A stretch of 32,000 nt of DNA from Candidatus Iainarchaeum sp. (GTDB lineage: Archaea; Iainarchaeota; Iainarchaeia; Iainarchaeales; VGJJ01): contig JAUYHT010000006.1 of the NCBI GenBank assembly GCA_030688545.1, positions 150,001-182,000 of the forward strand, written 5' to 3'. Below, one piece after another: positions 1 through 31,548 of the stretch. The stretch's first letter is position 1. Each line of letters opens with the position of its first letter. The notes below the pieces were generated by a model that saw nothing but the letters and a program-made list of their open reading frames with translations, made no database searches and was not told the origin of the DNA. A program made the translations under genes and the position numbers.

Positions 1-2864
1 GTGGTGGGGATGAATGCGGCGGCCATACTGGGATCCACAGTCACCCTAAGTTCTCCCGATTTCCCGATGCTGATTCCCGCCGTGTGCTCAAATACGATTT
101 CCCCTTCATTGATGAGTTGAACCTTTATTTGCGTGGCTTTATCCTGTTTGGTCAAGAGCTCAACTTTCCCTGAGATCGTTTGGTATTGTTCGAGCGTTCC
201 TACGGACAACCCCTGCCCTTCTCCCCCGGGCACATCATTCGTGGCTAATCCGGTGGATCGCAATACCCGGCCATCCGTTCCCACTACTTCATATCCCGTC
301 AGTTGAACCTCCCCACTAGGGATGAATCCATCGTTGGCAATGAACACGCGGAGTTTGGGATCCGCGTACAGGGTGGGGGAGGTGCTGGTGATGACGAACG
401 AATAATCATACGATTTGTTGACTTGCGTAGTGAAGGGTGGTCCCTCCACGAGTAGTTGGTCGTTCTCGTTAAACAATTGTTCTCCCGAGAAGCAGAACAG
501 GTCATCGCACACGATGGGTTTTCCCTGGAAGTAGATCTGGTGGTAGGTCTCCGCGTACTGCCCTTCTTTCCCCGGGATGGAGGCACTCGTTCCCAGGGCA
601 CTATCATACGGGTCCCGCAGCCATTCGCTGCCTCGGATGGCCCATCCCCGATAATAGATAGGCAAACTGGTGAGGGCACCTGCCTGCGGGGAAATGCGGA
701 CATCAACCCCTATTTCATATACCCCGGGCCCAGGATTATCCCATTCCGCGTTAGCCCATTTAGCCTCACCAAACGTAAGGTTTTGGGCATCGTCATCAAA
801 CCCCAATGAGGGTTGGTAGGTGGTGCCCTTCACCACGTGCCCATTGGGGGTGTTGAGAGAGAGGATGGCCAGCACATCATTCTCCAAAAAGGCCTCATCC
901 CCCACTCGAATATGTATCCCCGCTTTATCCAGATTAGTGAGAGGAGTGGGAATGCTCCATTCGAGCACCAGGGTGTACGTTTTCCCAGCCTTGAGTTCGT
1001 TCGCCCGGGTTTGCGTGAGGGGATTACGAACCTCCTTGAGTCGAATGAAAGGAGTATCTCCCAAAATGGTGGTAGGGAGGCGGACCACAATATTCTTAGT
1101 TTCTCCGGGATAGAGCTGGTGGCTCATACTGGCGTAGGTCGCAAACCCGCTCGCTCCCACGCGAACAAATACTTTTCGATCGGCCTTGAACGATTGCGAC
1201 ACTTTTCCCACGGAATCCGTTTGAACCTGGCAAGCGCCCGCCACACATTCATCAGTGCCATCGGTGAGGAATTCCACCGTGGCAAAAGGAATGGGTTGGC
1301 CTTCCAAATCCATCACCGAAACTTCAAGGGTTCCCGTCCCCAGACGCAGGGTTATTCCTGCCTGCGTGGCGGCTCGTGTATCCGAAGTGAAAATGGGCGA
1401 ATCGCTTGGTCCCGCCGGGTATTTGGTGGCCCGCGCGAAATAGCTCCCGCTCTGCACCCCAGTGAAGGCAGCATTCCCATTGGCATCCGTGGTGCGCACG
1501 GGATATTGGTGGGCGATGAAAGAAGAGGCCGCATCATAGAGCAATACCTGCGCATTGTCCACGGGAAACCCATCTTCGTCCTGCACATGAATGGTCACGC
1601 GTCCCGAATTCTGGGGGGTCAATTTCTCCATTCCGAATACAATAGTAGGCATCCCCATTTGGATGAGCCCAATATCCTGCGTCTCACTCAAGTAATCCGG
1701 GTGGGAAACAGTAAGCAAAAAAGGTCCTTCTTCGTCCAGGGGGAATGATAATGTCCCCTCCTGGGTGGGGGTGGTTTGACTCACAACGACTTTGTTGTCC
1801 GACTTCCTAACGACATTAACCGTGGCATTGGGCAGGTAGGCCAGGGACACTTTGTCCTGCACGCGCACTAATAGCGTGCCCTGGATGGCCCGTCCCATCG
1901 TTAACGTGAGGGGGATAATCTGGTTGACCGGGATAGAAATATTTTCGCTCGTGGAGGTAGCAAATCTTCCTCCCGGATCGCTGCCACTCACGTATACTAA
2001 TCCCGTTTCCACATCCGAAAAGCTGGCCACCCCGAAGGCATTGGTGAGCAATGACTGGATGAATACTCCATCTCCCGTGAAAAGGTCCACATTCATTCCC
2101 TCTAACACCGTGTTATCCACGGCATCCCGCACGGTGACGCGCAACGTTCCCTTTTCCCGCTCTTGGGATTGCAATCGGATGATAGCATTTTCAGGGGATA
2201 ACAGATACCCTTCCAGTTTGGCATACCCATCCCCATTCACATTGGCCACGAGTCTTTCACACCCAGGAGGAGGGGTCACGGTGAATACTCCCCCACTCAC
2301 GGTTAATGAATTAGGAATGACCTCCACTCCGGAGGTGCAGGATAAAGTAACTGTCAGGGTTTTCCCCGCTAAACTCTGCCCCCCCTCATCCACTAATTGA
2401 AAGGTGAGCGCCGACCCCGCCCGGGATCGCAGGATAAAACGAAAGTCCTTTTCGGAGGAGGTAACTATGCGTTGCTCCTGAAGTGGTTGGAAGGTGTCAT
2501 CCAGTACCGCGATAGTAATGGTGGACCCGTGAGGAATGTTCTCAAGTGTTATCTTTCCCACCGAGTTGGTGATGCGATTCCGGGTTTCTCCTCCTTGAGT
2601 AAACGCCACTTCCACTCCGGGGAGGGGAGTGTTTTCCTCATCTGTGAAGGTGAACACCGCCGTGGTGGTGCCCCCTATCCCCAGGAGAGGAAGGACAATG
2701 AGCCCCAGCACCCCCAATAGGATCAACCCAATTACCAGGGAGAAGCTAGGTATTTTCTCATCTATGGGATCAATGACCTTGTAAACGGGGACATACCCTT
2801 CCAACCTGTCCAGTAAGGCATACCACTGGTCCTCCAGGCGATGATAGAACGTGCGCACACCCAT
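1..2864 (-). CDS. Giant signal-anchored surface protein, paralog G1 (N-terminal 954 codons; ORF continues past the window start)
   Basis: Hand translation of the minus strand from ATG 2864..2862 gives MGVRTFYHRLEDQWYALLDRLEGYVPVYKVIDPIDEKIPSFSLVIGLILLGVLGL... A spot check at 662..839 gives HVVKGTTYQPSLGFDDDAQNLTFGEAKWANAEWDNPGPGVYEIGVDVRISPQAGALTSLP, collinear with the AKW / PG.Y..EV blocks of G2-G4. The track lists no stop-bounded minus ORF in this frame, which fits one open frame leaving the window. Plus-strand ORFs 813..1748, 1852..2400 and 2397..2720 are its antisense shadows. Confidence 0.85.
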   Translation of the reverse strand, partial: MGVRTFYHRLEDQWYALLDRLEGYVPVYKVIDPIDEKIPSFSLVIGLILLGVLGLIVLPLLGIGGTTTAVFTFTDEENTPLPGVEVAFTQGGETRNRITNSVGKITLENIPHGSTITIAVLDDTFQPLQEQRIVTSSEKDFRFILRSRAGSALTFQLVDEGGQSLAGKTLTVTLSCTSGVEVIPNSLTVSGGVFTVTPPPGCERLVANVNGDGYAKLEGYLLSPENAIIRLQSQEREKGTLRVTVRDAVDNTVLEGMNVDLFTGDGVFIQSLLTNAFGVASFSDVETGLVYVSGSDPGGRFATSTSENISIPVNQIIPLTLTMGRAIQGTLLVRVQDKVSLAYLPNATVNVVRKSDNKVVVSQTTPTQEGTLSFPLDEEGPFLLTVSHPDYLSETQDIGLIQMGMPTIVFGMEKLTPQNSGRVTIHVQDEDGFPVDNAQVLLYDAASSFIAHQYPVRTTDANGNAAFTGVQSGSYFARATKYPAGPSDSPIFTSDTRAATQAGITLRLGTGTLEVSVMDLEGQPIPFATVEFLTDGTDECVAGACQVQTDSVGKVSQSFKADRKVFVRVGASGFATYASMSHQLYPGETKNIVVRLPTTILGDTPFIRLKEVRNPLTQTRANELKAGKTYTLVLEWSIPTPLTNLDKAGIHIRVGDEAFLENDVLAILSLNTPNGHVVKGTTYQPSLGFDDDAQNLTFGEAKWANAEWDNPGPGVYEIGVDVRISPQAGALTSLPIYYRGWAIRGSEWLRDPYDSALGTSASIPGKEGQYAETYHQIYFQGKPIVCDDLFCFSGEQLFNENDQLLVEGPPFTTQVNKSYDYSFVITSTSPTLYADPKLRVFIANDGFIPSGEVQLTGYEVVGTDGRVLRSTGLATNDVPGGEGQGLSVGTLEQYQTISGKVELLTKQDKATQIKVQLINEGEIVFEHTAGISIGKSGELRVTVDPSMAAAFIPT

Positions 2865-2907
2865 GGGTTTCCAAACCCCTATGATGGGCAATGAAGGGAA
2901 TCGGGCG

Positions 2908-2916
2908 TATATAAAG
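2908..2916 (-). promoter_or_regulatory. TATA-like box upstream of G1 (minus-strand reading CTTTATATA)
   Basis: It lies in the 82-nt gap between the coiled-coil gene stop (2947) and the G1 ATG (2864), about 48 nt upstream of that ATG. A CCCGGAATC element sits just upstream of it on the minus strand. Confidence 0.45.
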
Positions 2917-2946: not shown

Positions 2947-4008
2947 TTAAAGGTCCTTATACAACTTGGGCACCCTTTCTTTTTCAAAGGGGGGAAGGCC
3001 TACTTCTACCGCCACCTGATTGAAATGGGAGATAAGGATCTTTAGTCTTTTCAAAATAGGGGCTTGGCGCTCTTGAATATCTTTGATTTTCCGCTTCCAA
3101 GTCTTTCTAGTGGATTCAGGTGCTTTTTGGTTATTCAATTTTTCCATTAGTTCTTTCAATTTGGGATTTTCTTCCCTGAGGTTATCTATATTCCGGAGGA
3201 TGGAATACAATAAAGTTATCTGCTCCCGTTGCAATCCAGGCCTCCCTATAACTCGCGACGCTCCCTCCAGTTGCCGGATGTTCCTATTCTGTTGAAATGT
3301 TAGAAGGTTGATGGCTGTCCGGATGTCTTTCTGATTTTTTATACGCTTTTCACTTTTCAAGGCGCGCTCTAATTCATACAGCCGTTGTTCCGCTAGCAAA
3401 CATCGTTTCAGAAGAATTTCCCGGGCCCTCTTTTTCGACGGTCGCTTTCTCGGTCGCCCGGTACTTGAAGGAGAATCTTTTTCTTTACTCTTTTGTTTGA
3501 CTACATTCATGGATTCCAACAGTTCTTCAAGTTCATGAATATTCGTGGGGACTCGGAGGCCATGTCGGCGCAATTCTAAACCCAATATGGCGATGTCGGT
3601 CGCAATTTTCCCTTCCAATTCAACAATATGGTTGGAAATTGATCGATAAACTTCTTCCCACACTTTCAGATTTTTGTTAGCCAACTTTCTTCTTTCCGAA
3701 TCAATTTCATTCCGAATTATCCTCAATTGTTTCAATGTTTTTTCAATCTTCAGACGAACCGCATCCGATACGCGAGAAAGTTCTTCCCTTCTTTCCTCAG
3801 ACATCCTGTCCTGGATTTTTAACTGATTTCTGGCGCCTTGTTCGATGATGTTACGCAATACCTCATTGCGGCGGGGATCAAAATCGGAAGGGTTAGGAGG
3901 AGGGCGTCGCTCTCCCTTTGGGATAATTTCTATCTTCCCAAGTTTTTGAGTAGGTCCTTTTTTCCCCCTACTCCCCCTACCAGGTGGTCGTCCTTTCCCC
4001 ATAGGCAT
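2947..4008 (-). CDS. Basic coiled-coil protein with AT-hook-like GRP motifs (hypothetical, 353 aa)
   Basis: ORF from the track. The N-terminus MPMGKGRPPGRGSRGKKGP and the internal STGRPRKRPSKKRAR are K/R/G/P-rich with GRP cores. The rest is E/K/R/L-rich and heptad-like (e.g. RREELSRVSDAVRLKIEKTLKQLRIIRNEIDSERRKLANK). Same strand as the giants, 158 nt downstream of G2 and 82 nt upstream of G1. Confidence 0.7.
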   Translation of the reverse strand: MPMGKGRPPGRGSRGKKGPTQKLGKIEIIPKGERRPPPNPSDFDPRRNEVLRNIIEQGARNQLKIQDRMSEERREELSRVSDAVRLKIEKTLKQLRIIRNEIDSERRKLANKNLKVWEEVYRSISNHIVELEGKIATDIAILGLELRRHGLRVPTNIHELEELLESMNVVKQKSKEKDSPSSTGRPRKRPSKKRAREILLKRCLLAEQRLYELERALKSEKRIKNQKDIRTAINLLTFQQNRNIRQLEGASRVIGRPGLQREQITLLYSILRNIDNLREENPKLKELMEKLNNQKAPESTRKTWKRKIKDIQERQAPILKRLKILISHFNQVAVEVGLPPFEKERVPKLYKDL

Positions 4009-4166: not shown

Positions 4167-7100
4167 TTATTTCACGATGCACATCGTTTCGGCTTCTTTC
4201 TCTTGCTTGGTGAGCGCGTTCATCACTTCTTTGGGGTTCCAGAAGAATTCAATTTTCGCCCCCGTGCTGCGCACGCACATGGCATCCTGCTTCACCAATC
4301 TTAATATTTCTTCCACGCTGCCCAACCGGTTGGAGGGGGTGTTGCCCGGCAGGACATTCGTCCCATTCAGGGGAATGGAGTTTCCTTTCACTAATTCTCC
4401 CGTGAATTCCATTCCGGTCTTCCAGGCCACACGCGTGATCTGCGATTGCGATTCCTGGGGGGTGTAGAAGATGGATTTGAAGAATGTGTTTCCCGCGTGG
4501 ATGGTGTTAGCGCACCATTCAAATCCGTAGGCGATGTTCTCCTGCGCCCCCGTGAGGGCACAATCCGCATTGATGGCGCTCATATCGAAGCGGGGGGAAT
4601 AATGATCGAGCATCGCATTGTCAGCAAAATCCCGGCAGTTGGGCCCCACCCCATACCAGGGGTTGCCTTGCGCTCCGATGTAGGATTGGCTGGTGTCATT
4701 CCCCACTCCCACGGAATAGAACCCATATACGTCGCTCTGCACGGCGTCATTGGCGATACGCATCATCACCGGAGTAGCGAAGCTGGGGCTCCAGGTGAGT
4801 TGCAGCTGTTGTGTCCCCTCCTGGGTTAGGCTCAATACCGTTCCCCGCTCAATGCTGTTGAGGATGGGATATGCATTCACCGTTTTTGTTGTTAATGTCG
4901 TGACGGGGGTGGAGTCGGCAATATCGATAGTGTCCACGCTCTCCGCGAGATCCATGTTCACCTTGACTTTTTCCCCGGTGTAGTTGACCCCATACCCCAC
5001 TCTTCCTTGACCATCATCCGTACCAATGAGTCCGTTGAAGGGCAAGTAATAGAAGGGACTAATTTCCTCCACGGTGCTGGTTTTCTCCACGAGCACATTA
5101 ATCACCGCATCCACTTCCCCATTCGTGAAGAAGGGCATCCCCACCTCATCAAATCGGATATCTAAAGTCACATCATAAATTCCGGGCCCGGGGAGCAGGT
5201 ATCCTTCCGGAGGAAGAACAGATCCTTCCCTCTGCACAATCCAATGATCCCGATTAGTGAAGAACCGACGCAACCCGGTTTGAGGATCCAAATAGTAGGT
5301 GGGAGCGTCGAAGAAGCTGACCGTGGTGGCATACCTATCGAAATCCTGGAAGAAGTCGGGAGAAAATCGATCCTGCATGAGGTGGGCACGGTAATTAACA
5401 AGTCCCAGCAAGGAGTCCTTGTCGAATCCCGGGGGATAGATGAGAGATTTTCCTTCGTCCTCACTAGCTTTGATGAACGCCCCCAAACGAAGAGTAGTGA
5501 ATGGCTCGCACGCCACCAATCCAGAATTAGCGCCGATGAAGAATTCAGTGGTGATGCTATCGGAGGCGGGCTGAGAATTGAAGCAGTTCTCGCATTCTTC
5601 AGGGGTGAGGATGGCGGTGACGGTGTACGCCCCTTCACTCAAATTGGATACCACAAATCCCACACTCACCTGGCTCCCCCCGGTGGGGACGAAAACGCTT
5701 TGAGTGCGGACAATAGGATTTGTCGTCGCGCCGATGGCCTTGTATTCAATGCGAAGTTGCGCGTTGTTGGGCGCGGGGGCCTTATTCTGGATGCCCACCA
5801 CGATATTCACATCCGCCCCCCCAATCTTGTCCACGGCAATGGAAGAAATTCCAATGTCCGCCGCCGGGATAATCTGGTTTTGGCTCCCGGACAGATCATC
5901 CTGCACCGGGCACGCGAAGGGGGCGTTCTGCGTGATGAATTGGCGCAGCGTTTGCACCTTCTGGAGAGTGGCGATGGAAAACTGCGTGGCATCGCAGTAG
6001 ATGTGAGTGGCATCCCCTTGCTTGTCCACGCGTCCCGCGTCGCAGGCGTCATAGGGGATGTCAGTGAAGTTCCATTTGAAGGCCACTTTTGGAACCGCCA
6101 AGTCCCCTGTTTTCCCTGTCTTCTCGGAGAAGGTGTCACAGCTCAGGGCGATGGGGGGCACCGCCGTAGCAAACCGGCTTTCGGGGGGAATGGCATTGTA
6201 TTGGAGGTGGAATTTGCTCTTGAATTCCGTTTCGTCCTGCGCTTTCAATGCGTCTTCGTCAGGCACCTTGTTCTTGTATTTCTCTCCCGAGGCGTATTCA
6301 AATCTTTCCCCGAAAACTAAAAGGGTGCGGAATATGGTTTGGTTGACGAATTGGGAGATGTTGGTGAACGTCAACGAATCGGCCTCCACTCGCCCTGGGG
6401 TTTCTTTCTCCAGGTTTATTTTGGGCACGAGAGCTACTCCACTTTTGGTAACCCGTATGTCCTTGTCCGCCACCTGCTCATTCGCCCCTTTCTCCCCCGC
6501 AATCATGCGCATCCCCTCTATTTCCACATCCTTTCCCAACACCGTAGTATTGAATTCCTTGTCTCCCGATCCAAAATAATCGATGAGGCTCACCGCAATC
6601 GTCACCACCCCAAAGGAGACCCAGGGGTTCTGCGTCCCCAATGACAATTTCCCGGTGATTTTCCCCAGCGCACTGCCGATGGCCGACTCCTGGATCTTTT
6701 CCCGGGTGGAGGGTCGCTGGTCGGGGTTAGACTGGAGGAGCAAAACCAACCCAGTGGAGGGCATGGTTTCGGGTCCCTTTGTCATCGCTTGAGCCCATAA
6801 TTCCCGAGCCCGATCGTCGGCCTCGGAGAGATTTTCGTCGAATCCCTTCAATGCCTTATCAAAGTCTTCCAACGCCCTCCGGGCTTTCGAGACATCCTTG
6901 GCATGGATCGCGTTCTCCAAGGTGACGTGGTGGGTTCCAGCCTCCAGATCAAATAGTAATGCATTTTCGAAAAACGTTTTGTAATCAACGGACGTTGGGT
7001 TATTCGGATTGAATGTCTCGGGCACCCGATCGCGCACGACGGAGAGGCGATGATCCATATCAAGTAGGGTATGCTCCTGCTGTCCCCAAATATATTCATA

Positions 7101-11567: not shown

Positions 11568-11622
11568 GCTCCCCGCTCCCCATTCCGGGATGGAAATATG
11601 CACTCAAAGAGCCTTTTCTGCG

Positions 11623-11630
11623 TATTTAAA
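11623..11630 (-). promoter_or_regulatory. TATA-like box upstream of G2 (minus-strand reading TTTAAATA)
   Basis: A TTTAAATA match about 60 nt upstream of ATG 11567. The predicted transcript start is near 11600, leaving a ~30-nt leader that contains GGGAGCGGGGAGC directly before the ATG. Confidence 0.5.
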
Positions 11631-11751
11631 GGTATGGCCGGAAGCGGCTTTGCACATAAACCTATCATTCCCAAAAAAGGAACCTCCAGCACGAAAGGGC
11701 CTTCGATTCGACATTTCAGCCTCTAATGTTTCCAGTCGTTTATTGCATAAG

Positions 11752-22005: not shown

Positions 22006-22027
22006 GCTCCAGGAATCCGTTTACCCC

Positions 22028-22037
22028 TTTTTATATG
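22028..22037 (-). promoter_or_regulatory. TATA-like box upstream of G3 (minus-strand reading CATATAAAAA)
   Basis: Centred about 28 nt upstream of ATG 22005 in the 85-nt gap after the pilin-like gene, a leaderless-type spacing. TTCCGGCCGGGAATCC lies just upstream on the minus strand. Confidence 0.55.
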
Positions 22038-22090
22038 TTGGGGGATTCCCGGCCGGAAACACCCATTCCGTGGCTAATTAGGGAAATCCT

Positions 22091-23842
22091 TTACTCGCAC
22101 GCGCTCACATCAATGGTGCATTCCTGCGCACTGTTGGCGGGATAGCATCGGAGATCCCCTCCCGTGAAGGGCGTTCCTTGCGTTTGTCCATACACCACGC
22201 ACTGGTTGACCCCATCCCCATATTGGGTGAACAGGGGCACGTTGTTCACGTAGTCGCAGGGATCAGATGGGTCCAGGGAGTTGTTTCCACAAACAACGGG
22301 GGGCGGATGATACGTGTCGGGCAAAGCGCACGCGGTCTCCGGGCAGGCGCCCGCACTCACGATATCGCCCGTGACGAATAGTCCCGCGTAATCGCGGATG
22401 GTGGTCAGGCAATAACTCGTGCACCGTTCGACTTGCGCATTGGCCGCAAATGAATCGAGGATGCGCACCTCATACCGCAGGGGGGATCGGTGATCCACTA
22501 CCGCGTACTGCGTGTTCGTATCCTCGAAGCGGAGGGTCACATTGATGGTTGAGAGTTTGGTGCAGTGCGCCTCCACTCCAAAGCTGGGGGCGTTTTCCAA
22601 TCCCTCAAATGTAATCGTTTTACTGGGCACCCCCACGGGTTGACTCACAACAGTAATGTTGTTGGTGAGCAATCGAAAGTCAGGCGTTTGTGCGAGTTGG
22701 GTGAGGTTTATCTGCACTTGGTTCCCGATGATTCCTCGCGTGAGGGTGGAGAGTGCGGCCGCGCGCGATGGACCCACGGCGGGATCATAATGCGTGATGT
22801 TGGCATTGATAGATTGGCATAGGTTAAGCGATGCCGCGGGGGCATCGCAGGTTAATGGAACATTCTGGGGATAATAATCCTCGAATAGCGTCAATCCCGA
22901 TTGCTCGGCCGGGCAGAGGTTTCCACCCTGCGCCCCCGGTGGGGGTTGCGCCCCGGGGCCTATCTGCGCGAGTCCGGGAGTAAACGGTTGGCTACGGTAT
23001 CCGCACGCCCCCGAATCACACATTCCAACTCCCAAATTATTCAGTTGCGCATGAAACTGGGGGGATAACAATCCCCCGCCCCCCACCAATTGTCCTTGGG
23101 CCAATTCATGCGAATATTTGAGCGCGCGAAAAATGCGCAAGGGCACATAGATGCGGAATTGCCCGCGAGGGATTACCGGAGACACGATAACTCGTCCCGA
23201 TGAGGGATCCCTCACGTGGATGGCGGGCAATTTCTCGTATTCGTCATCCGATATCAATGAAAAATCCAGGTTCACATAGAATGTTCCCACGCATTCCACG
23301 GGGGGTGTGGTTTCATCACATTGGATGACTTGCAAGTAGTCCTTTTGTGCCCCGGCGGTCTGGTTCAGCACGCTTTCGATGGCCTGCTTGATCTCGGGTT
23401 CTTGTCCCCCTTGAATGGTAAGCGTGTAACCCCCGATGCTCCTTTCTTTGGTGAGAATGATTTGATATAAATTGGCGGCAATTCGCCCGGCGATGATACT
23501 CCCATTGTTCCCTCCGAAATAGAAGGTGGAGAAATGCCCGATAACGTCCTTCCATTGTTGGGATTGGGCGCTGTACAAATAGGGGTTGTCCGGGGTCTGG
23601 GTGTATTCCTCAATAGCATTGCGGATGCCATAATTAACCACCTGCAATGCGTCCGCGCGCGTCAGATCCGCGAGGGTTTGCATCCGGCTCTGCGCTTCGA
23701 TCTCCAACACCACTTCATTACTTGTGCGTTCCGCATTAATCATCGTATTAATGAGCAATCCCGCAAGGAGAATGAGGATGGCCGCCAGGAGCGCGGTGAA
23801 GAGGGTGAATCCCCTTTGGTTGCTAACTCGATTTGGTTTCAT
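22091..23842 (-). CDS. Type IV pilin-like (class III signal peptide) Cys-rich secreted protein, 583 aa
   Basis: The track ORF 22091..23950 overlaps the end of G4. The internal ATG 23842 gives MKPNRVSNQRG/FTLFTALLAAILILLAGLLINTMI: a short basic leader, a Gly, then ~22 hydrophobic residues. That is a prepilin-type signal, with Thr rather than Glu at +5. The mature part has 18 Cys, often in close pairs (CDETTPPVEC, CDSGACGY, CTSYC, CPETAC, ECTIDVSACE at the C-terminus). Confidence 0.8.
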   Translation of the reverse strand: MKPNRVSNQRGFTLFTALLAAILILLAGLLINTMINAERTSNEVVLEIEAQSRMQTLADLTRADALQVVNYGIRNAIEEYTQTPDNPYLYSAQSQQWKDVIGHFSTFYFGGNNGSIIAGRIAANLYQIILTKERSIGGYTLTIQGGQEPEIKQAIESVLNQTAGAQKDYLQVIQCDETTPPVECVGTFYVNLDFSLISDDEYEKLPAIHVRDPSSGRVIVSPVIPRGQFRIYVPLRIFRALKYSHELAQGQLVGGGGLLSPQFHAQLNNLGVGMCDSGACGYRSQPFTPGLAQIGPGAQPPPGAQGGNLCPAEQSGLTLFEDYYPQNVPLTCDAPAASLNLCQSINANITHYDPAVGPSRAAALSTLTRGIIGNQVQINLTQLAQTPDFRLLTNNITVVSQPVGVPSKTITFEGLENAPSFGVEAHCTKLSTINVTLRFEDTNTQYAVVDHRSPLRYEVRILDSFAANAQVERCTSYCLTTIRDYAGLFVTGDIVSAGACPETACALPDTYHPPPVVCGNNSLDPSDPCDYVNNVPLFTQYGDGVNQCVVYGQTQGTPFTGGDLRCYPANSAQECTIDVSACE

Positions 23843-23891
23843 GGTATCCCCAACCCCCTTTCCTCTTCCTTCCAATTGAAACCATCGATTA

Positions 23892-26800
23892 TTACCCACA
23901 GTCAACCCACGTCGCGGGCGCCACATACGCATCATTAGGGAGCAGGTCAATGGTCATGATCCTCCCTGTTTCGTTCTCAGAATCCTGACCCACCGTGATG
24001 GCATAGCTCTGCCCCTTCTCGAATACCAATTCTTGCGTCACCGCATCCAACACATTATTCGATCCCGTCTGGAGCGTTATTTTGTTCTCTATTTCCTTCG
24101 TCAGCATGCTCCGGTAGGCGAAATACCCCGCCACATTCCCCGCGCCCCCGCACACCAAACCTTGTCCCACGGCTTTGGTGATTTTCCCTGCTTTCGTCTG
24201 GAAATATTTGGAGGGGATTTTGAACGATTTGGCTTTTTCCAAAGATTCGCTCGCCAGACGGGAAACATCGCTCGCGTGGTGTTTGAACACCTCATCCGGA
24301 TATGGGGACGCGTATCCCGTTCTCAACGCCTTCCTAAGGGAAGTTGTTTCCTTGTCAATTTGCGTGATACGGTCCAACACTTGCCCTTTCAGGGCATCCA
24401 TTTCCGCTTTATTGAATCCCGGTTTGCCCTCATAAGCAGTAATGAGGTTATCGAATTTTTGGGCCGCATTATTTTGGATGGACGCGAAATTCCGGATCTG
24501 TTTCGCCCACTGGTCGGCCTCTACCACTGGAATGGTAGCGATTCGGGCAGGCTGTCGTACGCCGCCAGCCGGGGTGGGTGGAATGGTTAAATCCTTGAAC
24601 CGTTCCATGTAGCCGGCCGCTACTAGTTTATTCCCTTCGATGCGCGTGATGATCTGTCGTTGGGTCTGTTCGATGAATGCCAAGTCAGTTTCTTTGATGA
24701 GATTAGTGGGATCCCCCACGCTCACCTTGCGCACGGGTTTCCATAGATTCTTGGGAACCGATGTCAGAGTTCCAAAGGCGGCTCCCGCGGCCGCGGGTTC
24801 GTTTTCCTCATCGATGTCAAAGGCAAAGTCGGTTCCTTCGCGCAACGCATTAACAGGATATCCCGCGATGTCGGCAGGGGTCTCCAAAAAGGTTCCATCC
24901 GCCTGTTCCTGGTGCACCGAAAACCATCCCGCCGCGCCCCCGGCGCCGCAGGATACGGCACAGTCGATGGCGCCCGCAGCCAGCGTCGTCCCCCCAAATA
25001 TGAGACCGGCGCCCAATTGGCACGCCCCGCAGGTGATGGCGCAGGTGGCTCCGAAGGATAGGAGAGAGGCATCTTGGCGTTGACGCAAGGCTGCTTCATA
25101 CACCGGGTTGTCAATGGCTTTGATCCCTTGCCCCGCATAACTCACATAGGATTCTCCCAACCCGCGTGTGGCGCTCAACTGCTGGGTCACCTGCTGAATG
25201 GTTTTCTGGGATTGATCTTCCGTCCAATCCACTGTTCCATGCCACGTCCCATCCCCTTTCTGCAAGGCTTTGGATAGCAATTGTTCCGGGGTCTGCGTGC
25301 AGGTACGGAGTTCGATTGAAAGGGGATCGGCGCGCACCCCGTCCAATGTCCGCGTAGCGATGCTTTCCACTTTCACCCGGTCGGCGCGCTGTTGGATGCG
25401 CGGATCGGTTTGGCCGCAGAGGAGCACCTCTTTCCGGTATACTTGTCCATTGGGATCGAAACCCAATTCGTATTCCGCTCCATAGGTAATAATATTAGTG
25501 GGTCGCTCAGATAATGCTTCTTCCGCCCCTCCGGTTTCATACAGATTCAATTCCGTGAGCCCCGGAATAGTGGTTCCATTGGGGTTGAGGGTATAGGAAA
25601 CATTGCTCTTGATGTCCGACCTGGATTCTAAGGTGCAGCACGCGAGGGAAGAGCGGACCGCCAATCCGTTCACATTCGATGCTCCCGGGGAACACCCCTC
25701 ATACGTGAACGCCCCCACGTCCTTGATGGAGAAGATGCGCCACGTCTGCAAATCGGGAGTAACACACCCATTCACATTACTCCCAAGGGAAGTGAGTATT
25801 TGCCCCACTTCCGAGATGACTTCTTTGGGCACATTTCCCTGGGTTCGTTTGACCGTCGTGAGGATGCGTTTGGGATCATTTCCTGTCGTAGTGGGATCCA
25901 GAGTGAGTTCCACTACACTCTCAGTTAGGTTCCCGATGCGCAAATCCAGGTGATTGCTTCCCGTGCGGAGGGCATACCTGTTCGGGCTCCCGAATACGGT
26001 GTCAGCCAACCATTCCCCTTGCGTGCGAAGCTCATCCGAGGATGTCACCATCCCCAAAAGGGTGTTCCGGTTGTTGTTGAAAGTAAGCGTCCCATCGCGG
26101 GGAAGAAAGTTAGCCGCATTAGTAATGGTGTCCTGGCATTCGGCGGTTTTCCGGTAAGTCACATGGGCCACCCCCACATTGATGTGGTTGGGTTGCAGTT
26201 GGTTGGCGGCCACCTCCACTCCCCCCATTAACGTAAGGGTGTATTGTCCGCATCCCTGGAGGGGCGGGATGAATACCAATCCCCCTAATCCCGTGCCGAG
26301 GCGTGAACGGAATACCTCTTCGGGATTCTCTCCTTGCAATCCCGGGTTGAGTTGCGCCTGCATCCCTTTGAGGCGGGGGTATTTTTCTCCCTGCATGGCA
26401 TAGTTCATGATTTCAGGAGAAACGATGTCATGTTGCAAATACAGATCGAATGTCAGATTTTGTATGCCTAATTGGGGAAAAGTGCAATACCTCTGCGTCA
26501 AATCGCACCCCGTGAATTGGGAGGCATCATTCTTTTTTCCCTGCATGAGTTGGACGGTTTTGGAAATCTGTTGTTCGATGGTTTTGGATAAGAAATTGGC
26601 CGCCTGTTCGGCATCGCAGTATGCTTGCGTGCATTCATCCTTTTGGGCCACCACGGGGAATCGCACATCAATAGTGCCCCCGCCGCATAAGGGCACAGGG
26701 ATAGCATTCGTTGAGAGTCCTTGCTCCAGTTCGTTCTCCCCAATGCGAATATCGATGAGGAGTGGATTGCTCGCCACGCCCCTTTGGGATAGGACTTGGA

Positions 26801-29800
26801 TTCCTTCCACCTGGATGGATACTGTTTGACGGGTGGGGGTTTGTTTGGTGAGGAACAAGTGATAGGTTGCTTCCGCATCCTTCTCAATTATTTCATCTCC
26901 CGATTGAAGGGGGTTGATATCCAGCCCATTCGTCCCCACCGTTGAGGGAGTGATGCGGGTGATGCGCACGGGCTCGAGGCAGGTGTTGCGAATAGTGAAT
27001 GGTTTGGATATCGTCCCGCTCAAAGTGGAGGAGGCAAACAGAATGGGGGTGTCCAAAGCGCTTATTTCAAGGCACGAGCTGGTTCCCGTTTGGATGGAAA
27101 TGTCCACCCTCCGGAGGAGGATGCGTTTGCCTTCCACGATCCCTGAAATGACAATGGTCCGCGGAGGATTTTTTTCAGGGACGCGCGTCAGCTCCCCCAC
27201 CAGATTTAAGGGGGGTTGCATCGTCTGACCGGGGGCTAATGTAACCCCTGTTCCTCGAGGAGCGATTTGAATGGCGCCTTCTAATTTCAATGCCAAACCA
27301 GGAATTGTTTCCCCCTCGATCTGGGCCTGCACCCCAAAAATGGGGACGCTCCCAATATTGGTGAGGGGAATAATGGCCCGGTCCGAGGCGGGTTGGTTGT
27401 CTTTCTGGATGAGAGTAAGTTCAACGCTCGCGGGAGCCTGCACCGCGGCCTGCCTATCCCAGAAATTGATTTCCAATGGCAGGCTCGCCGCGACTTGAGG
27501 GGCGCGGAAGGCCAAAGTATAGGTCAATGGGGACTTGGGATATCCCATCCCCACCTGGTAAGGAGAGGCCCTTCCCGCATACCCACTCATTCCAAACGCA
27601 GGATTCATCCCCGAAAATCCATCCCCATACCCATATCCCCCAAACCCGGTGTTGGCTTGGCGGAGCAACTCATTCGTGATGGAGATATCCACGGCCTTCT
27701 TTTGCCCATTTTTCAAAACCAATCCGGAGTCCACGGCTGCAATACGCAGCCCATCCACCTGCAAACTCCCATCCGGCGCAAGTATACTCGGCACCACATT
27801 CAATTCCTGGCCACAATTGTTAGTCACTTCCACACTCACCCGCTTGAGTTCGGGATTTGAATAATAGCCGCTCGCCTCATACCCATAGGCATTTGTTCCC
27901 GCGGCATTGTACACCTCGGTGTTGGGCGCGCCATACAATCCATAAGGGGAAATAGCGGGGTTCGTTTGGAAACCCCCAGCCCCCCCATACAAGGATCCGA
28001 AGGGCTGGGATTCCCCCATGAGGAGCACGGATAGTTTCTGCTTGTTGAACGCCAGGCACGCAGGATCAAGGGCCGGGTTGTAGGTGATGGAGAGTTGCGT
28101 ATTTCCCCCGAGCACATGACCATTTAATACTTCTCCCTGCACGCGCAACGCGGTCGTTCCATGATGGCTACTTTGGGTGTCCGTCCCGGTGTAGGTCGCG
28201 CTTACTTGGATGATGGCACTCCCATTCGGGGGAATGGACGCAGGGGGAACAAATTCCATTTGGAGGGAGGTGGGAAATCCCTCGAATGGGACAAAGGTGC
28301 CGGTGATATTTGTGATGGGGTGCGGGGTGTTGTTGCGCACGCTAATATTTTGAGTGACCTTGGTCTGCCCAAAAGGAATAGCTATCGCCACTTTCTCTTC
28401 CAACTGAAGAGGGTTGCTAATTCCAATAGCCACACTCTCTTCAAATCGTTCAAACCCGGGAACATCTATTTTTACCGCATAAATGCCTGGGGCGAGGCGG
28501 TTAGCCAAAAGATATCCCCCGTTTTCTCCATTCTGGGGAAGATTGCGTCCTTTGGTGGAGATGGCCATTTTTCCTTTGGCATCTTGGAGGGAAATGAACG
28601 CATTGGTTATGGGATTTCCTTGTTCATCCTGCACGGTAATGCGGATTCCCTCTTCCAAGGGGATTTCCCTATCCAGTTGCACCTGCAACACGCGAGGATT
28701 GGTAAGAGTAATGGGAATCTCGCGCGACCAGGCGGTTTGACTCGTGACCAGGTTCACCTGGATACTTGTCTCCCCCTCCCCTTGAGTCACGAAATGGGCG
28801 CGGGCCTTTCCGGGGGAGGAAACAGAGAAAGTGGGCAGTGGGATAGAAATATTGGTTTCACGCACACCATCGCTATCCAACTTCCCGAAGGGGGGGACTT
28901 CTCCTTTGGTGAAGAACAGCAGGGGATCCGTGGCACTCGTACTCATACGGATGGTCGCGGAAGCAGTAGTGGCGAGCGGCACCAATCCGGGAGTGGTTGG
29001 GGAAGAAGCCGCGGCCCCAGTTGAAGTAGGGGGCGGGAGCATCTCCACGTGAAGGGCATACGTCTTTCCCGTGACGCCTCGAAACCCTCCTATTTCATAC
29101 TCCCGATTGTTTTCATCCACGAAAAAAAGAGTCGCACACACATCCCCCGTGCAGAAGGGGAGGCGCGGGTAGATGGGAATGGGAATCGTGCGCGTGTCCG
29201 CATACAATCCTGATTTGGCGGGGGTGAAAGGCGCACTACCTAATCCGTCATCCGTGGGAGTGCGTTGGACTCCTCCCTCTCCTTCCAAGGAAGCCCGGTA
29301 CTGCAGTTCCTGTGTCCCTGTGGGGATGCCCGCGCGCGCGGCGAGGCGCACATCGAAGATATGCGTGCCGGCTGGGTTATCAAGCGTGACCTCTATCCAC
29401 TTATTGAAGCTACCCGCTTTCCCGCGCTGGGCCCGGTCTTTGGGTTCGTTCCCGGGGGGAGGATTAGGGGAATAGGTTTTCCCATATTCTATTTTGGTCG
29501 CATCCCCATTTAGACCGGTGATGCCTATGAATTGCGAGTCGATGGAAGTAATCGTGTCGCTGCCCGCGCGCACGTGAAACACTCCTTTCTTCCCGGGAGG
29601 AAAACGGACCTCAAACCGAGCGAATCCTTCGTGATCGGGGGCCAAACCCGGGATGGTATTTCCCCCGGCGTCAACCAATCCCAGGAATGTGATAGATGGC
29701 GCGTCCCCGACAGATGTAGTTTCCCCGATGACCACATCTATGTTCTCACTCCCATCCAATGTGAGGGTTTGGGAAAACGTATTCCCTTGGGCATCCCGGG

Positions 29801-31520
29801 TGCGGAGATTCACCACGCGATTTCCCAATACATCCACATTCACAAACCCATCCCCAACTTCTCCCGTGAACAAAACCTCTCCGGCTTGGGATGTGAAAGT
29901 AGCCTCTCCCTGAAAGGGCGCCCCCGTTGGCAGGCGCAGGTTGAAACGAATCTCATTAAGCCCATTCGTCAATGATAATGTGATTTTGTTGAGTCCCGCG
30001 GCGATGGTCACCTCTTCATTGTCAACGACATCCCCTTTGGCCGCTTCCACGAGGAGTGTTTTTCCGATAGGCACGCGCAGGGTGAAGCTTCCCCCCGCGT
30101 CCGCGCGCTGTTCATAAACATAGGGCAGCCACCCCCCTCCCTCCTTCTCCCACACCGTGAACACCGCATCATTAGCGGCCTTCCCATTCGCATGGCTCAC
30201 GAACACCACGAGCGTCCCGGATTGCTCGGTGGTGATGGCATTCAGGAAAAGGGCAAGGGTTTTCTTCCCCTCCGAGGCGGGCAAATCATCCCATAATACC
30301 GGAGTACGCAATGGGAAATAATTAGGGTGGAAGGCCAGCACCCAATATGCGCGGGTTTGATTCAGCCCAGGGAATTCCGCGTCTCCCGAGAAAGAAGAAG
30401 AGAGGTCAGCCAATTTCTGGTTGTTAGCATCCAGAAGAAGAAGTTGCACGTTCGTAAGAGGATTGTTATTCCCCTGATTGCGGGTGGTGACAACAAGTGA
30501 AATTCCCCCACTCCCAAGGGAGGCAATGATGGTTTCTTCCTGGTTGCGCAGGGTGAGCCCATTCCCATTGGCGGTATTGGTTGAGAACCCGAGATACCCT
30601 TCTTTCTCAACCCGCACCCGAATAACCGTGCCCTTGGGAATGGTTTCAGAATGTTGCCCACTGGATGAAAGGATGTCCGTGTAGGTGGCCCCACTCGCAG
30701 CGTCCTCGATGACAATGCGCACATCCCCCAATAGGATTTTGGTTTGCGCATCAATGGCTTTCACCAAAACAGTGCTGGTCCCGCTCCGGGCATCCGCCTT
30801 GGGCGAGAGTTCTTTTATTTTGGTATCCGTTCCCGTGAATGTGATGATGTCCACGAGGTCCTCGTAATTGTTGGCTTTCAGGGTGAGGGATATGGCTTTG
30901 TTGAGAGGGGCGTTCAATAATGCCACCCCTTCCGCGTTAGTCGTAGTCGTCAATGGAAATTCATTCCCCGTCCACGTGGCAGATACCACGACCCCAGGGA
31001 TAGGCGTCTGCGTCTCCTTGTCCACTATTTTTAATTTACCTACAATGGCTTCGTTATCCCCTTGAAGGATGATGCGTAGCCCGGTGTTGGTGCTGAGCAA
31101 TGTGGCTTCGTTCGACTCATACCCTTGTTTCCGCGCCTGCACGGTAAGCACCGCTTGAGGGGATATTCCTTCTAACAAAATAGTTTGTCCATCCGAAGCC
31201 GTGAGTTCCTTGATAATATTCCCCTGCTCGTCAACGATCTGCAGCGAGGCGTTGCGCAAACTTTCCCCCGTATGGTCGCGGAGTTGAAGGGTAAAAGAAA
31301 TATCCTGCGTCGTGGGAGTAGTGACCAGGTAAGCCAAACCCCCGATCAGCAGAACGAAAAGAGCCAGCGTCACGGGCAATGCGGGAATACCCTTGCTCTC
31401 CAAGGCATCATTGTACGCCCACGGAAAACCGATTCCCTTTTCCTCGAAAAAATCCAGGACACCATAATAGGCATCCTCCAGTTTCACGTAAAGGTTCCCC
31501 AACCCCGCGCTCAAACCCAT
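23892..31520 (-). CDS. Giant signal-anchored surface protein, paralog G4 (2,542 aa from ATG 31520)
   Basis: Uninterrupted 7.6-kb ORF. The track start 31538 is a TTG only 10 nt from the TATA box. ATG 31520 gives MGLSAGLGNLYVKLEDAYYGVLDFFEEKGIGFPWAYNDALESKGIPALPVTLALFVLLIGGLAYL. Beta-sandwich repeats are present (e.g. KLKIVDKETQTPIPGVVVSATW...TNAEGVALLNAP). There are two G/Y/F-rich low-complexity patches and the motif TQAYCDAEQ. An extra C-terminal hydrophobic/helical module is also present. Confidence 0.9.
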   Translation of the reverse strand: MGLSAGLGNLYVKLEDAYYGVLDFFEEKGIGFPWAYNDALESKGIPALPVTLALFVLLIGGLAYLVTTPTTQDISFTLQLRDHTGESLRNASLQIVDEQGNIIKELTASDGQTILLEGISPQAVLTVQARKQGYESNEATLLSTNTGLRIILQGDNEAIVGKLKIVDKETQTPIPGVVVSATWTGNEFPLTTTTNAEGVALLNAPLNKAISLTLKANNYEDLVDIITFTGTDTKIKELSPKADARSGTSTVLVKAIDAQTKILLGDVRIVIEDAASGATYTDILSSSGQHSETIPKGTVIRVRVEKEGYLGFSTNTANGNGLTLRNQEETIIASLGSGGISLVVTTRNQGNNNPLTNVQLLLLDANNQKLADLSSSFSGDAEFPGLNQTRAYWVLAFHPNYFPLRTPVLWDDLPASEGKKTLALFLNAITTEQSGTLVVFVSHANGKAANDAVFTVWEKEGGGWLPYVYEQRADAGGSFTLRVPIGKTLLVEAAKGDVVDNEEVTIAAGLNKITLSLTNGLNEIRFNLRLPTGAPFQGEATFTSQAGEVLFTGEVGDGFVNVDVLGNRVVNLRTRDAQGNTFSQTLTLDGSENIDVVIGETTSVGDAPSITFLGLVDAGGNTIPGLAPDHEGFARFEVRFPPGKKGVFHVRAGSDTITSIDSQFIGITGLNGDATKIEYGKTYSPNPPPGNEPKDRAQRGKAGSFNKWIEVTLDNPAGTHIFDVRLAARAGIPTGTQELQYRASLEGEGGVQRTPTDDGLGSAPFTPAKSGLYADTRTIPIPIYPRLPFCTGDVCATLFFVDENNREYEIGGFRGVTGKTYALHVEMLPPPTSTGAAASSPTTPGLVPLATTASATIRMSTSATDPLLFFTKGEVPPFGKLDSDGVRETNISIPLPTFSVSSPGKARAHFVTQGEGETSIQVNLVTSQTAWSREIPITLTNPRVLQVQLDREIPLEEGIRITVQDEQGNPITNAFISLQDAKGKMAISTKGRNLPQNGENGGYLLANRLAPGIYAVKIDVPGFERFEESVAIGISNPLQLEEKVAIAIPFGQTKVTQNISVRNNTPHPITNITGTFVPFEGFPTSLQMEFVPPASIPPNGSAIIQVSATYTGTDTQSSHHGTTALRVQGEVLNGHVLGGNTQLSITYNPALDPACLAFNKQKLSVLLMGESQPFGSLYGGAGGFQTNPAISPYGLYGAPNTEVYNAAGTNAYGYEASGYYSNPELKRVSVEVTNNCGQELNVVPSILAPDGSLQVDGLRIAAVDSGLVLKNGQKKAVDISITNELLRQANTGFGGYGYGDGFSGMNPAFGMSGYAGRASPYQVGMGYPKSPLTYTLAFRAPQVAASLPLEINFWDRQAAVQAPASVELTLIQKDNQPASDRAIIPLTNIGSVPIFGVQAQIEGETIPGLALKLEGAIQIAPRGTGVTLAPGQTMQPPLNLVGELTRVPEKNPPRTIVISGIVEGKRILLRRVDISIQTGTSSCLEISALDTPILFASSTLSGTISKPFTIRNTCLEPVRITRITPSTVGTNGLDINPLQSGDEIIEKDAEATYHLFLTKQTPTRQTVSIQVEGIQVLSQRGVASNPLLIDIRIGENELEQGLSTNAIPVPLCGGGTIDVRFPVVAQKDECTQAYCDAEQAANFLSKTIEQQISKTVQLMQGKKNDASQFTGCDLTQRYCTFPQLGIQNLTFDLYLQHDIVSPEIMNYAMQGEKYPRLKGMQAQLNPGLQGENPEEVFRSRLGTGLGGLVFIPPLQGCGQYTLTLMGGVEVAANQLQPNHINVGVAHVTYRKTAECQDTITNAANFLPRDGTLTFNNNRNTLLGMVTSSDELRTQGEWLADTVFGSPNRYALRTGSNHLDLRIGNLTESVVELTLDPTTTGNDPKRILTTVKRTQGNVPKEVISEVGQILTSLGSNVNGCVTPDLQTWRIFSIKDVGAFTYEGCSPGASNVNGLAVRSSLACCTLESRSDIKSNVSYTLNPNGTTIPGLTELNLYETGGAEEALSERPTNIITYGAEYELGFDPNGQVYRKEVLLCGQTDPRIQQRADRVKVESIATRTLDGVRADPLSIELRTCTQTPEQLLSKALQKGDGTWHGTVDWTEDQSQKTIQQVTQQLSATRGLGESYVSYAGQGIKAIDNPVYEAALRQRQDASLLSFGATCAITCGACQLGAGLIFGGTTLAAGAIDCAVSCGAGGAAGWFSVHQEQADGTFLETPADIAGYPVNALREGTDFAFDIDEENEPAAAGAAFGTLTSVPKNLWKPVRKVSVGDPTNLIKETDLAFIEQTQRQIITRIEGNKLVAAGYMERFKDLTIPPTPAGGVRQPARIATIPVVEADQWAKQIRNFASIQNNAAQKFDNLITAYEGKPGFNKAEMDALKGQVLDRITQIDKETTSLRKALRTGYASPYPDEVFKHHASDVSRLASESLEKAKSFKIPSKYFQTKAGKITKAVGQGLVCGGAGNVAGYFAYRSMLTKEIENKITLQTGSNNVLDAVTQELVFEKGQSYAITVGQDSENETGRIMTIDLLPNDAYVAPATWVDCG

Positions 31521-31548
31521 AGCAATCCCACCCATCAAACCACGGGAA

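Follow-up and report, generated by a model that had tools for sequence, protein, structure and literature searches.

The 32,000-nucleotide (nt) stretch of contig JAUYHT010000006.1 analysed here, referred to as the window, is dominated by four very long genes (G4, G3, G2 and G1) that encode giant proteins of about 2,500 amino acids (aa) each. An earlier note on this DNA, made from the letters alone, had described four same-strand open reading frames (ORFs) of 2,542, 2,525, 2,466 and, for a partial one, 954 aa that fill about 80% of it. Our ORF scan agrees with this description, as the four genes account for 79.6% of the window, and every long ORF is on the minus strand. Along that strand the order is G4, the pilin-like gene A4, G3, the membrane-protein gene s1, a variable slot, G2, the coiled-coil gene A2 and G1. 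The giants have a GC content of 52-57%, and two stretches are poorer in GC, one at 12-14 kb (39-46%) and one at 3-4 kb (44%). Scans of the window for tRNAs and for Rfam families returned no match. The coordinates of all features are collected in Table 1.

Paralogy and domain structure of the giants

A BLASTP comparison yielded 31% identity between G1 and G2 over 976 residues, and 25% between G2 and G3 over 1,308 residues together with 26% over another 277, while G4 returned only short, weak matches to the other giants. When family profiles were compared with hhalign, G3 and G2 proved collinear from end to end (residues 3-2511 against 5-2446, E = 2e-109), and G1 aligned with G2 along all of the available G1 (913 columns). 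The alignments of G4 to G3 and G2 were confined to residues ~1-1,100 (E = 7e-27 and 2e-22, respectively); after ten orthologs had been added to G4, the C-terminal 1,450 aa still produced no more than a marginal collinear match around YCDAEQ, with a probability of 15%. The proposal that all giants align collinearly over their whole length is thus sustained for G3/G2 and G1/G2 and has to be given up for G4, which by these comparisons is not a full-length paralog of the others. No nucleotide-level similarity between the giants was detected, which together with the low protein identity argues that the duplication is old. Profile comparison identifies the giants as anciently diverged paralogs, and their four orthologous groups keep their order across genomes in which orthologs share just 44-60% identity, in agreement with the suggestion of an old, maintained family. 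Among the landmarks that had been listed as shared, an N-terminal box (N-box) and the elements HVR.G, (A/S)KW and a C..FC pair are common to all four giants, the last three being invariant, whereas YLMQD.FS, PFNG...GYG and the C-terminal block are present in G2 and G3 only.

A single block outside the N-terminus contains residues that are invariant in all four paralog families. This domain of ~200 aa, located at residues ~600-800 and referred to here as the mid-stalk domain, follows the pattern HVRTG...AKW...LPLYYR...FPVDAVLG...GLYA...C-x4-C, and 15 of its residues are invariant across the four families (P, R, G, G, P, W, G, Y, R, P, D, Y, A, C and C). Such invariance suggests a shared partner or interface. 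Further towards the C-terminus, a motif [YF]CDA[TE]Q is encoded at positions 5980-6009 (G2), 16397-16426 (G3) and 26602-26631 (G4), with a nucleotide conservation of 67-77%. Its Cys and Gln residues are invariant, and no other feature was detected that connects the C-terminal part of G4 with the other giants.

Other regions differ considerably between orthologs. In G3, identity among orthologs is 22-30% over residues 1900-2525, compared to 50-69% elsewhere. The corresponding values are 12-32% for residues 1400-1600 of G2, a stretch with a hypervariable insertion and length variation, and 19-25% for residues 2200-2400 of G4. The variability of these distal stretches argues for ligand contact.

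All four giants match the Pfam family CarboxypepD_reg (PF13620), with scores of 73.3 (G4), 106.4 (G3), 91.7 (G2) and 101.5 bits (G1) against a gathering threshold of 32.3. Each contains two to five significant stretches, all of them within residues ~70-600, a region composed of CarboxypepD_reg/transthyretin-like repeats with about six such domains in G3. By these profile scores the giants are members of PF13620, an assignment that names a domain and not a function. The remaining Pfam matches of the giants (bMG3, MG4, SpaA, Big_1, SdrD_B and PEGA) are to overlapping β-sandwich families. Scans of all window ORFs against Pfam, NCBIfam and PHROGs returned only β-sandwich domain families, and no enzyme, thioester, surface-layer (S-layer) or sorting-signal model of Pfam or NCBIfam matched the giants. 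A search of PDB sequences with G3 and with a 29-sequence profile yielded only transthyretin-like, FAM171 and NOMO matches.

Two segments of G3 were modelled with AlphaFold. The first (residues 575-1320, 40-sequence alignment, predicted local distance difference test (pLDDT) score 80) is predicted to be all-β and to form about seven β-sandwiches. The second (residues 1405-2525, 29 sequences, pLDDT 75) is predicted to contain four β-sandwiches, an α/β region that begins with a long helix at FCDATQ (residue 1864), and C-terminal β domains. The two are separated by a low-complexity linker at residues ~1300-1405 (window ~17790-18105) that is rich in Gly, Tyr, Asn, Pro and Ser and contains NPSGSSLLPS, GYDGLG and YYANP. 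This linker is found in G3 and its orthologs and not in G2; the confidence of the model collapses across it, and it may act as a flexible hinge. Adding up the domains, we count roughly 17 β-sandwiches ahead of the distal head, which at ~4 nm per domain would give an extended stalk of 60-75 nm.

A Foldseek search with both G3 models against the PDB, and with the C-terminal model also against BFVD, returned only immunoglobulin (Ig)-like domain chains, namely ASH/Ig domains of the ciliary central pair, the Ig domains of PrgB, macroglobulin (MG) domains, cadherins and pilus chaperones, with template modelling (TM) scores of 0.1-0.3. In the C-terminal model, the Ig part masks the α/β head in such a search. 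The only S-layer entry among the matches listed is SbsB, with a TM score of 0.13. The earlier statement that the giants carry no catalytic motif stands up to these searches, as nothing enzymatic emerged. Nor did Pfam, NCBIfam, PDB sequences or Foldseek yield a characterised family for the N-box or the C-terminal halves.

At their N-termini, the giants share the N-box, a segment of ~40 aa with the consensus Y..xEDkYY..LD.LD..GiPVY.vvD.Ie...IPSF[PA], followed by ~25-30 hydrophobic residues. An alignment of 163 N-termini shows how strictly its end, (I/V)-P-(S/T/A)-(F/L)-(P/A), is kept, with Pro in 97%, Ser, Thr or Ala in 99%, and Phe or Leu in 96% of the sequences. A hydropathy scan located one hydrophobic segment per giant, at residues ~37-75, and no C-terminal hydrophobic segment in G2, G3, G4 or A4. 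Lysines are confined to the N-box side of the helix. Neither the N-box nor the IPSF-helix matches a Pfam or NCBIfam model, even at E-values up to 10, and a known sorting domain was rejected on these grounds. A class III signal was also considered; the leader is a conserved acidic box of 40 aa with N/K-I-P-S-F before the helix, and lacks a G/A cleavage site. Nor do the giants resemble archaeosortase or exosortase substrates of the PGF-, PEF-, PIP- or VPXXXP-CTERM type, as a C-terminal tripartite signal and a match to an NCBIfam sorting-domain model are both missing. The hydropathy and model scans thus support the earlier view that PGF-CTERM, sortase signals and C-terminal anchors are absent. 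Each giant contains 22-26 Cys residues, many in invariant close pairs, a content that fits an extracellular protein but is not proof of one.

Conservation of the array and its neighbourhood in related genomes

Full-length relatives were found for G3 (13, at 44-54% identity), G4 (9, at 43-47%) and G2 (14, at 55-61%), all of them in metagenome-assembled genomes (MAGs). Their source names read Candidatus Diapherotrites, Candidatus Iainarchaeum or "archaeon", with one Micrarchaeota label among the sampled family members, and their existing annotation is limited to "carboxypeptidase regulatory-like domain-containing protein" or "hypothetical". Protein similarity thus assigns the source of the window to a Candidatus Iainarchaeota/Diapherotrites (DPANN) archaeon, in accordance with the earlier guess of an uncultivated, probably archaeal organism.

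To estimate the size of the family, a profile of 687 positions covering the region common to the four paralogs (G3 590-1290), built without G2 orthologs, was searched against 1.84 billion representatives. Counted as representatives of 50%-identity clusters, the matches numbered 1,222 below an E-value of 1e-3, 672 below 1e-10 and 461 below 1e-30. Among the 461 strong matches, the best 150 (all E<1e-98) are nearly all 2,300-2,700 aa long, carry the module at ~600-1,290, and are ~30% identical to the window proteins. By type, the best matches comprise 66 G3-like, 53 G2-like, 21 G1-like and 2 G4-like proteins. The N-box is carried by 97 of 106 full-length family representatives. We define the family by an N-box with IPSF[P/A] and one transmembrane segment, the domain at ~600-800 and a length of ~2,300-2,700 aa; the N-box and the mid domain are present in all four giants of the window.

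The gene order G4-A4-G3-s1-G2-(variable small ORFs)-G1 holds wherever a contig reaches far enough. G3 always has A4 before it and s1 after it, as seen in 15+ species-representative genomes and on four additional contigs. The relatives have G1-like genes of ~2,360 aa after G2, with unrelated housekeeping genes beyond G1. The combination of giant, pilin-like and membrane-protein genes, whose recurrence the earlier note had proposed to check, was found in all related loci with enough flank. In the closed Ca. Iainarchaeum chromosome CP064981.1, the G3-like gene is broken by one in-frame TAG (L001 16322-16324) in its variable C-terminal region, with the frame running 562 codons further; this could reflect a pseudogene, a sequencing error or read-through.

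Independent assemblies bear on the soundness of the array. G4 is 100% identical to P0014, from an independent Logan assembly, and G2 is 100% identical to P0024, from an NCBI MAG. A Logan contig is identical to window positions 13892-31587, that is, 100% over 17.7 kb covering G4-A4-G3-s1. This identity and the absence of internal DNA repeats rule out a chimeric array as far as sequence comparison goes. The alternative, that similar genes of several strains were collapsed or chained by the assembler, could draw on the metagenomic source and on the break of the independent contig at repeats 67 nt upstream of G4. However, the giants share no nucleotide similarity able to mislead an assembler, and the identical order recurs in more than 15 other genomes, including the closed 1.05-Mb chromosome, so that we consider the chance of an artefact negligible.

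Two further elements flank the array in relatives. In four of four relatives with upstream sequence, including the closed CP064981.1, G4 is preceded at a distance of 60-105 nt by a same-strand gene for an archaeosortase-family protein of 168-182 aa. The protein scores 41-45 bits with TIGR04178 (cutoff 23) and far below cutoff with all named subfamily models (ArtA-H, Xrt* and pacearchaeosortase). It retains the motifs IEISxxC(S/T)GL, N(L/I)xRM and THDxLFR, with their Cys, Arg and His residues. No canonical substrate with a C-terminal signal is visible in its neighbourhood in the relatives. In the window itself, this gene is absent, and the 480 bp upstream of G4 hold repeats. In three of three relatives, a type-IV-filament operon also stands beside the giant array, divergent from the small archaeosortase gene. 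Its products are a FlaI/TadA-like ATPase of 767 aa whose N-terminus is extended considerably, a platform-like membrane protein of ~780 aa with a weak T2SSF match, two or three small class III signal proteins (pilins of ~160 and ~175 aa and a class-III-like peptide of ~52 aa), and a conserved 344-aa protein without a family match.

Accessory genes, promoters and repeats

The earlier note had assigned a different accessory gene to each complete giant. All three genes are present, with the pilin-like A4 after G4, the membrane protein s1 after G3 and the coiled-coil A2 after G2, but A2 is not conserved. A4 has one N-terminal hydrophobic segment and begins with MKPNRVSNQRG/FTLFTALLAAILILLAGLL (QRG/FTLFTALLAAILILLAG), which by eye resembles a class III signal. 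Its model matches are weak, sub-threshold and N-terminal (TadE/G-like, E = 0.02; ComGF, E = 0.023), and the window holds no prepilin peptidase gene. The s1 protein keeps its place behind G3 in related loci, where its counterparts are 36-40% identical, and has no family match in Pfam or NCBIfam. For A2, s2, s3 and p1, no counterpart exists in related loci, and for A2, s2 and s3 no family match was obtained; these four were rejected as conserved accessory genes.

Both slots between giants (s1/G2 and G2/G1) carry unrelated small basic ORFs in other genomes. As the ORFs differ from genome to genome, turnover or insertion seems to be frequent in these slots. Within the s1/G2 slot, positions 12266-12467 hold a ~200-nt copy, 92% identical, of an internal part of G2 (10699-10900, codons ~223-289), with differences that are mostly transitions and show no adenine specificity. 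It looks like a recent gene-fragment duplication or a recombination scar, and the overlapping p1 is probably a spurious ORF. A diversity-generating retroelement was considered and rejected, as this sole long repeat pair differs mainly by transitions on both strands and the window contains no reverse transcriptase ORF.

Each giant is preceded by its own TATA-like box, as had been noted before. Octamers of the form TWTAWAWA lie 36 nt (G4), 31 nt (G3), 63 nt (G2) and 51 nt (G1) upstream of the ATG; the window contains 13 matches where 5 are expected, with none inside the giants. An octamer scan of the window found none before A4 or s1. Since A4 lacks a TATA-like box of its own, it is probably co-transcribed with G4. 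The pattern fits four archaeal promoters with co-transcription of G4-A4 and of G3-s1.

Four direct copies of a GC-rich repeat of 27-61 nt (core TCGNCCGGCCGCACCGA) occupy positions 31556-31841, within the 480 bp upstream of G4. The core has four matches where 0.03 are expected, and a nested hairpin is present in each copy (fold z-score -3.4). The repeats are also the exact end point of an independent Logan contig, and they match no Rfam or tRNA model. They could be regulatory, or represent a terminator array or a miniature mobile element.

Table 1. Features of the window and of related loci (positions prefixed with L refer to loci of relatives).
Feature	Position	Strand	Basis
G4 giant, 2,542 aa from ATG	23892-31520	-	ORF; start at the ATG matching orthologs; CarboxypepD_reg 73 bits
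A4, 583 aa, pilin-like N-terminus, Cys-rich C-terminal part	22091-23842	-	sequence, hydropathy
G3 giant, 2,525 aa	14428-22005	-	ORF, Pfam, AlphaFold models, 13 full-length orthologs
s1, 155-aa polytopic membrane protein, directly 3' of G3	13935-14402	-	hydrophobic segments
Variable low-GC slot between s1 and G2, 2.3 kb	11604-13934		s2, s3, p1 and G2-fragment copy
s2, 3 transmembrane segments	13324-13719	-	ORF in slot s1/G2
s3, basic	12602-13135	-	ORF in slot s1/G2
p1	11781-12323	+	ORF in slot s1/G2, overlaps G2-fragment copy
G2 giant, 2,466 aa	4167-11567	-	ORF; full-length collinear paralog of G3
A2, 353-aa basic coiled-coil ORF, slot G2/G1	2947-4008	-	ORF, low GC
G1 partial giant, N-terminal 954 aa, C-terminus beyond window edge	3-2864	-	ORF; closest paralog G2
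N-box and transmembrane helix of G4	31296-31520	-	
N-box and transmembrane helix of G3 (residues 1-70)	21796-22005	-	
N-box and transmembrane helix of G2	11358-11567	-	
N-box and transmembrane helix of G1	2646-2864	-	
Conserved mid-stalk domain of G3, residues ~597-800	19606-20217	-	invariant columns, predicted all-β
TATA-like octamer of G4	31549-31556	-	
TATA-like octamer of G3	22028-22036	-	
TATA-like octamer of G2	11623-11630	-	
TATA-like octamer of G1	2908-2915	-	
Small archaeosortase-family gene in relatives	L023 9360-9896; L025 9389-9937; L026 9434-9940; L002 2-475		
Divergent type-IV-filament operon in relatives	L025 1194-9349; L026 1194-9412; L023 1167-8302		

A candidate surface apparatus and its alternatives

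The domain types and the neighbouring genes suggest a surface location and an adhesive role for the giants. We favour, with a probability of roughly 60%, a lineage-typical cell-surface fibril or adhesion apparatus built from the four proteins. Each giant would be made as a single-pass membrane protein, with the N-box on the cytoplasmic side and the one helix after IPSF[P/A] as its anchor. The remaining ~2,400 aa would lie outside the cell and form a stalk of β-sandwich (transthyretin/Ig/PapD-like) domains, which would bear the mid-stalk domain and a paralog-specific distal part of α/β and β structure with the lineage-variable stretches. G4 would be produced together with the pilin-like A4, and G3 together with s1. 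The products would most likely form long surface fibrils or tethers for attachment to an envelope layer, to particles or to cells. That the giants keep a fixed copy number and order argues for distinct roles, perhaps within one structure, and the four paralogs would be non-redundant. The N-box may serve as a dedicated targeting or anchoring region, in analogy to the extended signal regions found on very large exoproteins of bacteria. The earlier inference of a multi-component surface apparatus gains from the archaeosortase gene and the type-IV-filament operon that flank the array in relatives, and loses in that only A4 and s1 of its three accessories are conserved.

Several observations weigh against a fibril or adhesion apparatus. 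For the distal α/β parts no fold match was obtained, so that the head might be enzymatic or toxin-like. Neither the archaeosortase gene nor the filament operon lies in the window, and what links them to the giants is their adjacency in relatives. The topology was derived from a hydropathy scan and from charge counts, the positive-inside argument being weak because the N-box is net acidic, and N-glycosylation sequons are not enriched in the giants. Finally, Diapherotrites have been argued to be free-living (as cited in PMC6642349), so that host attachment is not implied by their lifestyle.

The main rival is an envelope scaffold, in which the giants would act as fixed subunits of one lattice or complex, a canopy or spacer held ~60-70 nm above the membrane on stalks, like stalked S-layers. 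The strict presence of one copy each of four distinct paralogs in fixed order would agree with such a structure, as would the devotion of about 30 kb of the 1.05-Mb CP064981.1 to the cluster, and the invariance of the mid-stalk domain would suit a common interface. Ig-like domains are moreover typical of archaeal S-layer proteins (bioRxiv 10.1101/2024.05.28.596244), and SbsB appears among the Foldseek matches. However, no S-layer family model of Pfam or NCBIfam matches the giants, an S-layer usually consists of just one or two proteins, which are abundant and 400-1,500 aa long, and the lineage-variable distal regions suit ligand binding better than a lattice. We therefore regard a scaffold as unlikely, though it is the alternative to be taken most seriously. 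A quite different identity, that of α-2-macroglobulin (A2M)-like protease traps or thioester proteins with [YF]CDA[TE]Q as the thioester site, could be read from the bMG3 scores of G1-G3 (38.9-45.6 bits, cutoff 34.9), from additional MG4 matches, and from Foldseek E-values of about 1e-12 to ECAM and the Salmonella A2M. Bacterial A2Ms are likewise anchored at their N-termini, and in G2, G3 and G4 a Cys and a Gln are conserved within a single short motif where a long helix is predicted to begin. Yet the MG matches overlap the CarboxypepD_reg repeats, mostly without an individually significant stretch, and the TM scores of 0.1-0.2 are generic for Ig chains. The motif reads C-x3-Q without a conserved Glu and is not CxEQ; the region that follows it is predicted to be α/β and no α/α toroid; no thioester-domain structure is among the top Foldseek matches, in which 4rtd has a probability of 0.21; a full MG1-MG8 architecture is not found; and the PDB profile search pointed to transthyretin-like proteins only. 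On the motif and the predicted fold, we rejected this identity as extremely improbable.

The neighbouring genes of the relatives allow a further explanation, in which the giants are processed cargo. The N-box/IPSF[P/A] and helix would then constitute a new N-terminal sorting signal for the archaeosortase, or the giants would be inserted, released or attached with the aid of the filament system and A4; in both cases the mature protein would be something other than a simple fibril anchored at its N-terminus. IPSF[P/A] before the helix is conserved at 96-99% in the 163 sequences and resembles the motif-plus-helix layout of P-G-F, P-E-F and P-E-P signals. The enzyme gene upstream of G4 in four of four relatives encodes the conserved Cys, Arg and His and belongs to no named subfamily, and no other protein of the neighbourhood has a motif-plus-helix signal. 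Against this, the known signals of the exosortase/archaeosortase family are all C-terminal, and no -CTERM model matches. In the expected topology, the motif would lie on the cytoplasmic face and the predicted active site of the enzyme would face outward, both as judged from the sequences, and a cut at this N-terminal position would leave the enzyme with the 40-aa N-box instead of the giant. Furthermore, the archaeosortase gene is not adjacent in this window, and the N-box is unlike a class III signal, with no G/A cleavage site before the helix. Processing of this kind is accordingly improbable. A bolder extension of the surface reading, which we mention as a long shot, would unite the giants, A4, s1, the small archaeosortase and the filament genes in one undescribed archaeal surface organelle. 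The N-box/IPSF[P/A]-helix would then be a new sorting or assembly signal, the first N-terminal one tied to an enzyme of the exosortase/archaeosortase family, or a docking site for the filament machine, and the four paralogs would make up a hetero-oligomeric fibre as its fixed subunits.

Surface proteins of giant size with Ig repeats are already known, from the SPEARE proteins of DPANN archaea, from archaeal filament loci and from tandem arrays of small bacterial genomes. The earlier note could name no characterised system with this architecture; this remains true in that the N-box and the C-terminal halves match no family, but the general kind has been described, and the novelty is accordingly lower than the note implied. 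We found no paper on this giant-gene cluster, and within the reach of our searches, no characterisation exists of the giant family, the N-box, the four-paralog cluster or the genes next to it. Archaeal type-IV-filament loci of "system 2" often encode large adhesin-like Ig-fold proteins, of unknown function, for which adhesion or envelope priming has been proposed (bioRxiv 10.64898/2026.04.22.720090); Iainarchaeota are not mentioned in that survey. The operon of the relatives resembles this system (subsystem 4G, arCOG05616) in its N-terminally extended ATPase, single platform and several pilins with class III signals beside Ig-rich giants, and differs from the system as surveyed in that the paralogs are four in number, fixed and ~2,500 aa long, carry the N-box/IPSF signal-anchor and adjoin an archaeosortase-family gene; here, the filament operon is moreover outside the window. 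The SPEARE proteins of Nanohaloarchaeota (PMC6642349) are likewise giant (3,300-8,500 aa), single-pass-anchored and mostly extracytoplasmic DPANN proteins with adhesion-type domains. Several SPEARE copies take up ~4% of a genome, compared to about 3% here, and one SPEARE is also anchored at its N-terminus. Unlike the Iainarchaeota giants, which are known here from sequence, SPEARE proteins have been seen to be expressed by proteomics. They come from another taxon and show no sequence relationship, and their domains (serine protease, laminin-G, toxin-like, restriction endonuclease) were not detected in the giants; for serine protease, laminin-G and type III restriction endonuclease, Pfam and NCBIfam scans were negative in the giants and in eight orthologs.

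In bacteria, Giant1-5 of Apilactobacillus kunkeei (PMC12863079) are reported to be encoded by consecutive same-strand genes for extracellular proteins of 3,000-8,000 aa that make up several per cent of a small genome, and to represent old paralogs with a common N-terminal region and a divergent remainder. They belong to a Gram-positive envelope, carry Sec-type signals and are unrelated in sequence, so that the likeness is one of layout only. Bacterial A2Ms (ECAM and the Salmonella A2M; PDB codes 5a42 and 4u48) present a comparable chain of macroglobulin-type β-sandwiches on an N-terminal anchor. In contrast to these, the giants lack CxEQ, the thioester-domain fold and a bait region and are ~1,000 aa longer, and the similarity is that of generic β-sandwiches. 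With the PGF-, PEF- and PIP-CTERM proteins and their enzymes ArtA-ArtH, the giants share a Pro-x-Phe-type motif before a helix and, in relatives, an adjoining gene for an enzyme of the family. Their motif is however N-terminal and without a basic tail, no sorting model matches, the enzyme falls outside the named subfamilies, and the geometry speaks against processing. Conserved extra N-terminal segments before the hydrophobic core also occur on very large bacterial surface proteins, as ESPR in type V secretion and as YSIRK/GS, and are thought to steer or pace export. The giants show no sequence similarity to these, archaea do not have type V secretion, and the long hydrophobic segment (~25-30 residues) of the giants probably stays as an anchor; the comparison is one of analogy only.

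To our knowledge, no member of the Iainarchaeota has been cultivated, and whether they are free-living or host-dependent is disputed. For this group, the central question is by what means cells make contact with one another, with particles or with hosts. Although their genomes are tiny, about 3% of roughly 1 Mb is spent on four giant genes. The order of these genes is kept across genomes in which the identity of orthologs does not go beyond 30-60%, a degree of conservation that points to a central function on the cell surface. The N-box offers a diagnostic N-terminal signature that could mark the giant family in metagenomes, and the defined variable regions of the giants may track binding partners. 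The small archaeosortase, unclassified and with non-canonical neighbours, provides a candidate pairing. Even if the giants were only generic adhesins, their description would be a useful annotation for about 460 clusters now labelled "hypothetical" or "carboxypeptidase regulatory-like".

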